Source: a virus (lineage: Duplodnaviria; Heunggongvirae; Uroviricota; Caudoviricetes). From it: DNA of 18,772 nt. Position numbers and translations under genes: made by a program. The stretch lies in the IMG/VR virus record IMGVR_UViG_2718218139_000014; one strand, written 5' to 3'. Position 1 is the first letter of the stretch. The number at the start of each line of letters is the position of its first letter. A model generated the notes under the pieces. It searched no databases and had not been told where the DNA came from. It saw only the letters and a program-made list of their open reading frames with translations. Positions 14,946-15,768 of the stretch are shown one piece after another.

Positions 14946-15286
14946 ATGTTTTCGAAATGGAAGGGTTTCTTCGCGGGAAATGTGTACCGCGAGATCTGAA
15001 AGTGAATGAAACAAATGCTGAGTATCTGGTGCGTAAATTCGATGAAGTACGTGCTGAGGCTCGCAACGAGGGTATTAACTATACCGCAAGCCGTCTTGCT
15101 GCTGCTTTCAATCACGGATTTATCAATAAGCCTTTGGCTGAAGTTTTCGACGTTACACGCATGATTCTGTCAGCGAAAGAAGAGTTGGCTAATGAACCGC
15201 ATCCGATTGATGGCCTGTCTGGTGAATATGCGGAGAAATCCCTTGAAGAATGGGCGGAACAGATTCGCAAAGGAGGCAACCAGTGA
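14936..15286 (+). CDS. YfdS-like prophage protein of unknown function, 116 aa
   Basis: ATG overlaps the yfdR 3' end (ATGCGCATGA); positional homologue of yfdS; ends ...IRKGGNQ with stop overlapping the next start (GTGA). Confidence 0.6.
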   Translation: MRMNVFEMEGFLRGKCVPRDLKVNETNAEYLVRKFDEVRAEARNEGINYTASRLAAAFNHGFINKPLAEVFDVTRMILSAKEELANEPHPIDGLSGEYAEKSLEEWAEQIRKGGNQ

Positions 15287-15768
15287 CTGGACATGCAGCA
15301 ATCCTCGACATGTGCTGTGGCAGTCGCATGTTCTGGTTCGATAAGAAGGACGACCGGGCGATATTTAGCGATATCAGAAAGGAAGAGCACACATTGTGTG
15401 ATGGACGGCGCCTGATTATCAGTCCTGACCTGATAGCTGATTTTCGTGCACTACCATTTGCAGACGCATCTTTTTCGATGGTTGTATTCGACCCTCCGCA
15501 TCTTGAGCGTGTCGGTGATAACGCCTGGATGGGAAAGAAATATGGACGGCTGAATAAAGACACCTGGCGTGATGATTTGCGGCAGGGATTTAAAGAAGCC
15601 TTTCGTGTGTTGCGTCCATACGGCGTTCTGATTTTTAAATGGAATGAAACGCAAATACCTGTTCGCCAAATATTGGTACTGACCGACAGAAAGCCTGTTA
15701 TCGGTCAACGAACAGGAAAGGGTGACAAGACCCACTGGATTATTTTTATGAAGGAGGGCAACCAGTGA
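15283..15768 (+). CDS. Small putative DNA methyltransferase (SAM-binding motif then DPPH motif), about 161 aa, orphan
   Basis: GTG start overlapping the upstream stop (GTGA) with AGGAGG RBS; ILDMCCGS (motif I-like) and VVFDPPH (motif IV-like) in gamma-class order; flanked by near-identical gene-junction repeats. Confidence 0.55.
   Translation: MTGHAAILDMCCGSRMFWFDKKDDRAIFSDIRKEEHTLCDGRRLIISPDLIADFRALPFADASFSMVVFDPPHLERVGDNAWMGKKYGRLNKDTWRDDLRQGFKEAFRVLRPYGVLIFKWNETQIPVRQILVLTDRKPVIGQRTGKGDKTHWIIFMKEGNQ

Follow-up and report, generated by a model that had tools for sequence, protein, structure and literature searches.

A short linker conserved at gene boundaries of lambdoid and P22-like phages brackets a putative orphan methyltransferase gene in a decayed Escherichia coli prophage

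Whether the mosaic genomes of phages arise by recombination at conserved linkers or by random illegitimate joints followed by selection is an old debate. Short conserved boundary sequences were proposed as recombination sites (Clark et al., 2001; Susskind and Botstein, 1978, as cited in PMC3029335), and clear cases of such linkers are described as uncommon (PMC3029335). In T4-type phages, PeSL cassettes carry repeated regulatory sequences around single accessory open reading frames (ORFs), which appear to be inserted, deleted or replaced by means of these sequences with expression being kept (Arbiol et al., 2010, PMC2839356). Morons possess their own promoter and terminator, are often of different composition and have no conserved flanking sequences (Juhala et al., 2000; Hendrix et al., 2000; summarised in PMC2839356). 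With regard to possible cargo, M.EcoGI and M.EcoGII are orphan DNA methyltransferases of E. coli prophages, M.EcoGII being a 349-aa beta-class enzyme with the order DPPY ... target-recognition domain (TRD) ... FxGxG (PMC5778455). Here we describe a locus of the virus record IMGVR_UViG_2718218139_000014 (Caudoviricetes; 18,772 nt, the whole stretch analysed and hereafter called the window), in which a putative methyltransferase gene is located between two near-identical copies of a short linker consisting of a ribosome-binding site and a stop/start overlap. It offers a clean and countable case for this debate.

The methyltransferase gene, its neighbours and the two linker copies are arranged as follows:

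14936-15286, + strand: upstream gene, 116 aa, a YfdS/Eae-Ea22 hybrid; its translated ORF ends in ...AEQIRKGGNQ-stop
15270-15286, + strand: 5' linker copy AAGGAGGCAACCAGTGA, 17 nt, also written AAGGAGG-CAACCAGTGA
15283-15768, + strand: methyltransferase ORF, 161 aa, GTG start
15751-15768, + strand: 3' linker copy AAGGAGGGCAACCAGTGA, 18 nt, with an extra G at 15758
15765-16874, + strand: downstream gene, 369 aa, with an Ead/Ea22 N-terminal domain (VSKIDYQALRE...; PF13935, 3.6e-22) and a C-terminal DUF551 (PF04448, 1.7e-21)

Both copies contain a Shine-Dalgarno sequence, a spacer of 6-7 nt and the start/stop overlap GTGA. In the 5' copy, the Shine-Dalgarno sequence AAGGAGG (15270-15276) is followed by the spacer CAACCA and the GTG start of the methyltransferase gene (15283-15285), which overlaps the TGA of the upstream gene (15284-15286). 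In the 3' copy, the Shine-Dalgarno sequence is located at 15751-15757, the GTG of the Ea22/DUF551 gene at 15765-15767 and the TGA of the methyltransferase gene at 15766-15768. An exact 12-mer, GGCAACCAGTGA, and the heptamer AAGGAGG are common to both. An earlier reading of this DNA, made from the sequence alone (the sequence-only reading), had noticed near-identical repeats bracketing the gene; these are present at both junctions, with a length of 17-18 nt and a 1-nt indel instead of the 18-19 nt given there. It had also described a ...GNQ-stop overlapping a GTG start at both junctions, and this is what is found: the upstream gene ends in ...RKGGNQ-stop, the methyltransferase in ...MKEGNQ-stop, and the GTGs lie at 15283 and 15765. 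The GTG start of the methyltransferase agrees with the RefSeq annotation of a near-identical prophage and with the 161-aa length of the closest database cluster (P0001). By chance, the window should contain 0.04 matches to an 18-mer pattern of the linker with at most 3 mismatches; it contains two, a number reached in none of 200 shuffles (0/200), and the repeat pair is therefore not due to chance. For the 12-mer with at most 1 mismatch, 0.09 occurrences are expected in the window and 4 were found, 2 of them exact. The junction between the Ea22-DUF551 gene and the following exonuclease gene (16860-16880, GGAGGTGAAGTGATG) has a Shine-Dalgarno sequence, a short spacer and a stop/start overlap as well, with a spacer unrelated to that of the linker. 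It serves as an internal control, as it indicates that a junction can have this design without having the linker sequence.

To extend the comparison to other phages, IMG/VR was scanned with the exact pattern GGAGG(N)CAACCAGTGA, which matched at least 120 contigs and gave a junction set selected by the linker pattern itself. Among the matches listed, nearly all are 'ea' regions of enterobacterial lambdoid or P22-like phages, in which the linker lies on the stop/start of adjacent genes. The sequence of the 5' copy recurs identically at more than 100 IMG/VR junctions among the matches listed, and the 21-mer CGCAAAGGAGGCAACCAGTGA has at least 73 occurrences among the contigs listed. A 70-nt consensus of the commonest junction was found in 392 phage records (Escherichia, Shiga toxin (Stx)-converting, Salmonella and Shigella phages); lambda itself matches this consensus from the Ea22 start onwards only. 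HK620, for which Clark and colleagues reportedly discussed boundary sequences in 2001, has the linker where hkaH meets hkaG in the annotated pL operon, in the stretch from the recombination genes to int, a location that supports an early-left operon placement of the genes of the window. Linker-like sites with at most 2 edits are strongly biased in orientation, with 160 on the coding strand vs 3 on the opposite strand in 1.2 Mb. Two or more same-strand linker-like copies are present at 32 loci, delimiting cassettes of 241 to ~1240 nt, and the examples examined enclose different genes. Directly behind the linker we find many Ea22-like variants, the methyltransferase, DUF7739, DUF7446, a PAPS-reductase-family protein and several family-less proteins. 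The upstream genes read the linker in two frames, giving tails of the type ...RKGGNQ-stop (...GGNQ-stop) or ...(Q/A)EATSE..., which argues that the constraint acts on the nucleic acid and not on the peptide. The possibility raised by the sequence-only reading, that the junction sequence might not be conserved at module boundaries of related phages, did not materialise: numerous boundaries between non-homologous genes carry the conserved linker, which is the dominant junction type there, not the sole one.

The sequences flanking the linker were grouped into classes using 100 nt on each side of 131 junctions, anchored at the linker, with at least 80% ungapped identity. These classes replaced a protein-level single-linkage clustering of the flanking ORFs, which was uninformative because Ea22-like genes merged through their conserved ends. 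The 131 sampled junctions comprise 44 upstream and 43 downstream classes in 92 combinations. A single upstream class (n = 16) is paired with 12 downstream classes, and the 5' end of the methyltransferase gene with 3 upstream classes. When junctions were compared pairwise, both flanks became dissimilar within 300 nt, mostly within 30 nt, in 7959 of 8256 pairs (96%), so that the linker stands as an island of identity.

Comparison with 5426 complete E. coli genomes (megablast of window positions 14936-16100) gave matches that start or stop at positions 15281, 15286-15289 and 15769. The whole arrangement of the window is present in only 16 of these genomes. An artificial 'empty-site' query, composed of one linker between 200 nt of upstream and 200 nt of downstream sequence, was matched by E. 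coli KFu019 in one piece of 398 nt with 96.2% identity. Thus, the presence/absence comparison of homologous prophages that had been proposed with the original observation has a positive outcome, since KFu019 joins the same two flanking genes by a single linker and differs by an exact 482-bp indel:

15287-15768, + strand: 482-bp indel unit, the methyltransferase body plus one linker copy, absent from the collinear empty site of KFu019

Owing to the repeat, the ends of the indel can be slid within the linker. From this pair of genomes, gain and loss of the unit read alike. In O104:H4 C227-11, the upstream module is joined via one linker straight to an Ea22-like gene. In KFu019 (L124, 2578-3398), the linker junction lies downstream of replication genes (DnaT-like, P) in a nin-like position and not in the exo-int region; this location suggests that linker-bounded Ea22-type cassettes also move between different lambdoid operons.

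In other prophages the methyltransferase body is 92.5-97% identical to that of the window, and the identity of one or both flanks drops to background exactly from the linkers, as seen in the following comparisons (identity to the window in % for the upstream 200 nt / methyltransferase body / downstream 200 nt):

O157:H7 (L003): 96.5 / 96.6 / 52
L028: 94.5 / 92.5 / 50
L108: 54.7 / 95.1 / 55.9
O104:H4 Rac-like prophage (L127): 50.9 / 93.1 / 55.7

The 3' linker accompanies the methyltransferase gene with small variants in every E. coli context examined, also where the 5' junction differs. The variant of O104:H4, AAGGAGGCGACCAGTGA, is without the extra G and gives the tail KEATSEQD-stop and a 14-nt overlap with Ea22; the extra G of the window shifts the tail to KEGNQ-stop and gives a 4-nt overlap. 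L028 has the variant AAAGAGGCAACCAGTGA, and the Rac-like and O157 copies have AAAGAGGCATCCAGTGA. The copy of O104:H4 2009EL-2071 (L127, 2474-2968) encodes an intact protein of 164 aa; in its Rac-like prophage, it has a DUF977 gene on one side and two Ea22-like genes on the other. The 5' junction of this copy, GGAGGTAGCGCAGTGAGTG, follows the design of the linker (Shine-Dalgarno sequence, short spacer, CAGTGA) with a different spacer, and may be a diverged linker. The occurrence of the linker at many non-homologous boundaries, the exact empty site and the identity steps at the linkers all point in the direction proposed by the sequence-only reading; that the gene was inserted or exchanged by recombination at a conserved linker appears well supported by these comparisons.

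The same reading had termed the gene a moron, and in this respect it has to be corrected. No promoter-like site was found on the + strand between 13100 and 17900, and no convincing terminator between the genes; terminator-like matches near the methyltransferase gene were weak and inside the ORF. Around neither linker copy is RNA structure significant (z = 0.11 and -1.12), and an Rfam scan around the linkers identified no family. The GC content of the methyltransferase gene (0.475) lies among those of the neighbouring genes (0.464-0.491), and its GC content at third codon positions is inside the range of the neighbours. The gene thus has no promoter or terminator of its own, no distinct composition, 4-nt GTGA overlaps at both ends and conserved flanking repeats. 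One property of morons it does share, as it is an extra gene between neighbours that are adjacent elsewhere (KFu019; compare O104:H4 C227-11). It is better termed an operon-embedded cassette.

The encoded protein yielded only weak, generic Methyltransf_11/25 matches in Pfam and no meaningful match in NCBIfam. It matched PHROG 954 'DNA methyltransferase' (1.3e-87) and, in PADLOC, PDLC03288 MTase_II (2.3e-74) and PDLC03730 oMTase (orphan; 7.6e-51), labels which are themselves homology-derived. Motif I reads ILDMCCGS and motif IV FDPPH, and all family-invariant residues are present (LD9xCCG13, D30, D53-F54, F69-DPPH73, K86-Y-G88, K119-W120 and H151). The residues ILD9-M-C-C-G13-S, D30 and D53, which we take to represent the S-adenosylmethionine (SAM) motif I and the acidic motif II/III, are invariant or nearly so across Gram-negative and Gram-positive homologues. 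D70-P-P-H73 is invariant as well and follows a beta-strand according to the alignment and the predicted model. An AlphaFold2 model based on a shallow alignment of Enterobacterales sequences only reached a predicted local distance difference test score (pLDDT) of 66.8, and 75 when Firmicutes homologues were added. The top Foldseek matches are weak (E ~1e-3, template modelling (TM) scores 0.3-0.44) and enriched for amino-methyltransferases with a (D/N/S)PPx motif; they comprise METTL3, a rotifer N4-cytosine methyltransferase, Trm11, PrmC, a Type III Mod subunit, M.BceJIV, M.TaqI and CcrM. From this model, a Rossmann-like class I methyltransferase fold with methylation of an exocyclic or amide nitrogen is plausible. 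Some relatives carry extensions of 50-80 aa at the N-terminus or ~85 aa at the C-terminus that have no Pfam match. The C-terminal extension is found in P0009, P0090 and P0105 (248 aa), N-terminal extensions in many others (P0245-P0251 etc.), and Pfam scans of the N-terminally extended relatives revealed no DNA-binding domain. These extensions could be the missing substrate-binding modules.

The family is large. Homologue searches started from the E. coli protein and from a Staphylococcus phage homologue each returned at least ~8000 scored candidates, with at least 313 clusters (50% identity) at E <= 1e-30 among the matches listed, and thousands of database clusters are spread over Enterobacterales and Firmicutes. 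The E. coli prophage protein and its homologue from a Staphylococcus pseudintermedius phage are 57% identical, and identity within Firmicutes is 72-97%. Comparison of the window protein with the homologues P0121-P0240 and L125:1339-1803 shows Cys11, Cys12 and DPPH to be invariant and Cys39 almost so, a degree of conservation that is unusually high for a phage accessory enzyme without a TRD. The gene is present in 944 of the 5426 complete E. coli genomes. The copy of E. coli O157:H7 Rafaela_II (L003, 2848-3321) has an internal stop, and in some Rac-like prophages (L002, 2503-2859) truncation leaves ~118 aa. Several lineages show decay of the gene, and the copy of the window is intact. Its orphan status was confirmed, as no restriction enzyme was found among the proteins encoded next to it: the flanking YfdR hydrolase, Eae/YfdS hybrid, Ea22/DUF551 protein and exonuclease match no restriction or defence model, the sole match in the defence library being a generic DEDDh model for the exonuclease. 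A literature search found no study of this methyltransferase family, of its DPPH motif or of exo-xis-region methyltransferases. M.EcoGI/II of O104:H4 belong to a different, 349-aa beta-class family.

To explain these observations, we propose that lambdoid and P22-like phages use the linker as a portable inter-gene element throughout their early-left ('ea', exo-to-int) accessory region. The explanation as a whole, comprising a portable linker, exchange at linkers and an orphan amino-methyltransferase as cargo, is in our view probable. As RNA, the linker would serve as the translation-initiation region of the next gene, and translation of each cassette would be coupled to that of the neighbouring one in a single operon. 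As DNA, it would provide an island of identity between unrelated genes, 15-21 nt in length and ~60-70 nt at Ea22-type junctions, often lengthened upstream by the conserved tail ...QLRKGGNQ and downstream by the conserved Ea22 N-terminus VSKIDYQALRE. Crossing-over by homologous or short-homology recombination would take place inside this island, with phage single-strand-annealing recombinases, host RecA or replication slippage as candidate agents, and whole ORFs would be inserted, deleted or replaced with frames and expression being kept. Phage Rad52-like recombinases were described to drive relaxed homologous recombination and mosaicism (PMC3945230). The methyltransferase cassette would then consist of linker, ORF and linker, the same repeats permitting its precise loss. 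The anatomy of the locus, linker conservation, reassorted flanks and an exact presence/absence polymorphism are all observed; from them we infer the recombination mechanism, the enzymes and the direction of events. The cargo would be an orphan amino-methyltransferase that most likely acts on DNA (N6-adenine or N4-cytosine), is made together with the early-left genes after infection or induction and would shield phage DNA from restriction. This functional role is the weakest step of the explanation. Judged from the sequence, the chances of DNA being the substrate are roughly balanced, and an anti-restriction or epigenetic role, as suggested by the sequence-only reading, is a reasonable guess.

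Several points weigh against this explanation. On the side of the linker, a 1-nt indel distinguishes the two copies of the window, the conservation of the core inside the IMG/VR set is by construction, as the set was chosen through the linker pattern, and about 30 of the 132 Ea22-like starts in the same loci have other upstream leaders. The strict core of only 15-18 nt is below the usual minimal processing segment of RecA and inefficient for Red-type recombination, so that single events are expected to be rare. The empty site of KFu019 has CAGCC and both window copies have CAACC; KFu019 is therefore not a recent deletion derivative of the window arrangement. On the side of the cargo, an insertion sequence (IS) abuts the truncated first gene of the operon in the window itself, where the native early promoter is missing. 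A sequence search of PDB chains with the protein and with the family profile gave nothing significant, no TRD is evident, the 161 aa being wholly catalytic core, and motif IV is DPPH and not the usual DPPY/F/W; in characterised (D/N/S)PP(Y/F/W) enzymes the fourth residue is aromatic. The weak fold matches take in RNA and protein methyltransferases, several E. coli copies are pseudogenes, and the 57% cross-phylum identity suggests a conserved, possibly non-sequence-specific or non-DNA target.

The main rival explanation assumes illegitimate recombination followed by selection (Hendrix/Juhala), with the linker being the inherited leader and tail of tandem Ea22-like paralogues, one body of which was replaced by the methyltransferase. 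Most linker junctions indeed involve Ea22-like genes with conserved N-termini (VSKIDYQALRE) and tails (QLRKGGNQ), other leader types also precede Ea22-like starts, Ea22 genes are known as mosaic (PMC10834534), and most phage mosaic joints are without boundary sequences (PMC3029335). However, the 15-mer stands before at least 10 unrelated families without an Ea22 N-terminus (methyltransferase, DUF7739, DUF7446, PAPS reductase and others) and is met by upstream genes in a different reading frame. Moreover, filled and empty site differ by exactly one linker-to-linker unit, which would require random joints to strike the same few bases repeatedly. The rival is weakened by these findings, and we consider it unlikely. 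It might also be argued that the junctions merely share the need for a Shine-Dalgarno sequence and GTGA, without recombination or common descent. AAGGAGG is a perfect Shine-Dalgarno sequence, the Ea22/exonuclease junction has the same design with a different sequence, and GTGA and ATGA overlaps are common in phage operons. Such convergence would leave the spacer free to vary, for we know of no translational requirement for CAACCA, but the two window copies and dozens of unrelated gene pairs all have this spacer unchanged, and spacers at linker junctions are less variable than those at other coupled junctions in the sampled set. As, in addition, the pair is expected only 0.04 times by chance in the window and the breakpoints and the 482-bp indel coincide with the repeat, pure ribosome-binding-site convergence was rejected as very improbable.

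Direct repeats on either side of one gene whose presence between two given neighbours varies would also fit a target-site duplication or a dedicated mobile element with a transposase, homing endonuclease or integron-like recombinase. Yet the repeat occurs at junctions that never held the methyltransferase and flanks many other genes, the methyltransferase keeps its 3' linker where the 5' junction differs, and family scans detected no transposase, homing endonuclease or integron integrase in or beside the cassette. The IS copies of the window are unrelated and ~1.7 kb and further away, and the linker has no attC-like hairpin or inverted repeat. Target-site duplication and an integron-type cassette were thus rejected, given that the repeat pre-exists at unrelated junctions and that recombinase and hairpin are lacking, and this origin is hardly credible. 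A different doubt concerns the cargo alone, which could act on RNA (e.g. m2G/m6A in tRNA or rRNA), on protein or on a small molecule, or be inactive here. The unusual motif IV, the lack of a recognisable TRD in 161 aa and the 57% identity to the Staphylococcus phage homologue speak for it, as do fold matches to Trm11, TrmN, PrmC, RsmC and METTL3 alongside DNA methyltransferases, curated family matches to generic Methyltransf_11/25 only, and the common pseudogene copies in E. coli. Phage and defence libraries, in contrast, assign the family with strong scores to the DNA, Type II or orphan methyltransferases (by homology), the relative P0251 has a weak N6_N4_Mtase match, and motif I (LDxxxGS) and motif IV (DPPx) resemble those of DNA amino-methyltransferases. 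We therefore regard a non-DNA cargo as possible, if somewhat doubtful. Finally, in a more far-reaching version of the model, which we consider improbable, the linker would be an integron-like recombination signal without integrase for the reshuffling of coupled accessory or counter-defence arrays, favoured by phage annealing recombinases or acting via single-linker circular or slippage intermediates, and the cargo a TRD-less DPPH methyltransferase of ~155 aa with non-specific DNA or a conserved RNA or other target.

The window as a whole is a decayed prophage at dusA of an E. coli strain resembling enterohaemorrhagic E. coli (EHEC). In addition to the genes listed above, the following features surround the cassette:

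13.5-17.8 kb, + strand: co-directional gene string, from ORFs, translations and family matches
13516-14280, + strand: truncated YfdQ/DUF2303 gene
14346-14945, + strand: YfdR HD-hydrolase
16871-17446, + strand: Rv2179c-like 3'-5' exonuclease
17456-17755, + strand: PrtN-family gene
4954-6228 and 12267-13541: two inverted IS copies, 1275 nt, 100% identical
5356-6174 and 12321-13139: IS3-family rve transposase ORFs inside the IS copies

The window further contains dnaB, a quinone-oxidoreductase-like gene, dusA, a truncated integrase gene, three NleG genes, a tail-fibre gene, lom and the 3' end of J, the last four items being enclosed by the IS pair. The left IS copy adjoins the truncated integrase gene (4150-4956) beside dusA. 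The right copy terminates within the start of the YfdQ-like gene, and the promoter-proximal part of the operon is absent from the window; with this part lost to the IS, expression of the methyltransferase in the window is uncertain. An inversion or deletion mediated by the IS copies is likely. In an intact relative, E. coli RM9088, the order is repressor, yfdP, yfdQ, yfdR, Eae, methyltransferase, Ea22, DUF551, exonuclease, PrtN, YafO and dusA'. The three NleG-family type III effector genes lie in tandem beside the tail-fibre genes on the - strand (6985-7626, 7708-8337 and 8410-8997), which indicates a host strain of the EHEC or enteropathogenic E. coli (EPEC) type. At the other end, a GC-rich bidirectional terminator-like hairpin (17766-17783; region 17762-17800, - strand) is located at the 3' end of a YafO-family toxin gene (17782-18216, - strand); it gave a weak, sub-threshold match to the small RNA isrK (20.4 bits vs a gathering score of 50, E = 0.24).

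Both neighbours of the methyltransferase gene are themselves composite. In megablast searches of E. coli genomes, nt 1-107/109 of the upstream gene match yfdS and nt 108-351 match Ea22-like annotations, and PHROG 583 and PHROG 614 match residues 1-42 and 36-116, respectively. An intragenic mosaic joint is thus seen at ~15043: the first ~108 nt (36 aa) correspond to K-12 yfdS, which is found in thousands of genomes, and the remaining ~245 nt to an Ea22/Eae-type 3' module. The name 'yfdS-like' given by the sequence-only reading holds for the first ~108 nt only, the remainder being the 3' module of Eae/Ea22-type genes, and with these two parts the 'yfdS-like' gene is itself recombinant. Likewise, the downstream 'DUF551 gene' does have DUF551 at its C-terminus, with an Ead/Ea22 N-terminal domain fused before it, and is a mosaic of PHROG pieces.

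At this locus, one 15-nt ribosome-binding and start-stop sequence joins dozens of unrelated gene pairs, and the filled and the exact empty site are both available from sequenced genomes, which makes the linker hypothesis directly testable. For annotators, the linker is a practical marker of where cassettes begin and end in the exo-xis/ea region, a poorly understood part of Stx and other lambdoid prophages. The methyltransferase carried here represents a very abundant family that is wholly uncharacterised, and knowledge of its substrate would fill a gap in the biology of phage methylomes and anti-restriction.

Compared with described systems, the cassette shares with morons that it is an extra gene between genes adjacent in a related genome, with an accessory function that possibly benefits the lysogen; unlike morons, it has neither promoter, terminator nor distinct composition of its own and is flanked by conserved repeats. 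As in PeSL cassettes, the repeats flank single accessory ORFs and would allow cassette exchange with expression kept. However, PeSL comprise promoter and terminator and isolate transcription, whereas the ea linker has no promoter, terminator or hairpin and couples translation. Integron cassettes likewise form promoterless single-gene arrays with a recurring short element in between and an upstream promoter, but the ea linker comes with neither an integrase nor an imperfect palindrome of the attC type, and exchange would presumably proceed by general or short-homology recombination. With M.EcoGI, M.EcoGII and the Dam-type enzymes of phages, the methyltransferase shares the location in a (cryptic) prophage and the lack of a partner restriction enzyme. 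Like them, it probably stays silent during lysogeny and is activated at induction; protection of phage DNA is the role that was proposed for these enzymes. Unlike M.EcoGII, the protein of the window has 161 aa, motif I before motif IV, DPPH instead of DPPY and no evident TRD, and is known from sequence alone. The closest likeness is to the boundary sequences of lambdoid phages (Susskind and Botstein, 1978; Campbell and Botstein; Clark et al., 2001), in which a short conserved sequence is likewise found exactly at gene boundaries between non-homologous modules with coinciding breakpoints, and the same ea linker is present in HK620 itself. The ea linker differs from these in being at the same time a full signal for translation initiation and coupling, in acting at the level of single genes and in joining ~44 x 43 flank classes. 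Taken together, the phenomenon is an instance of the known Susskind-Botstein/Clark boundary-sequence model, and a particularly clean and quantifiable one.

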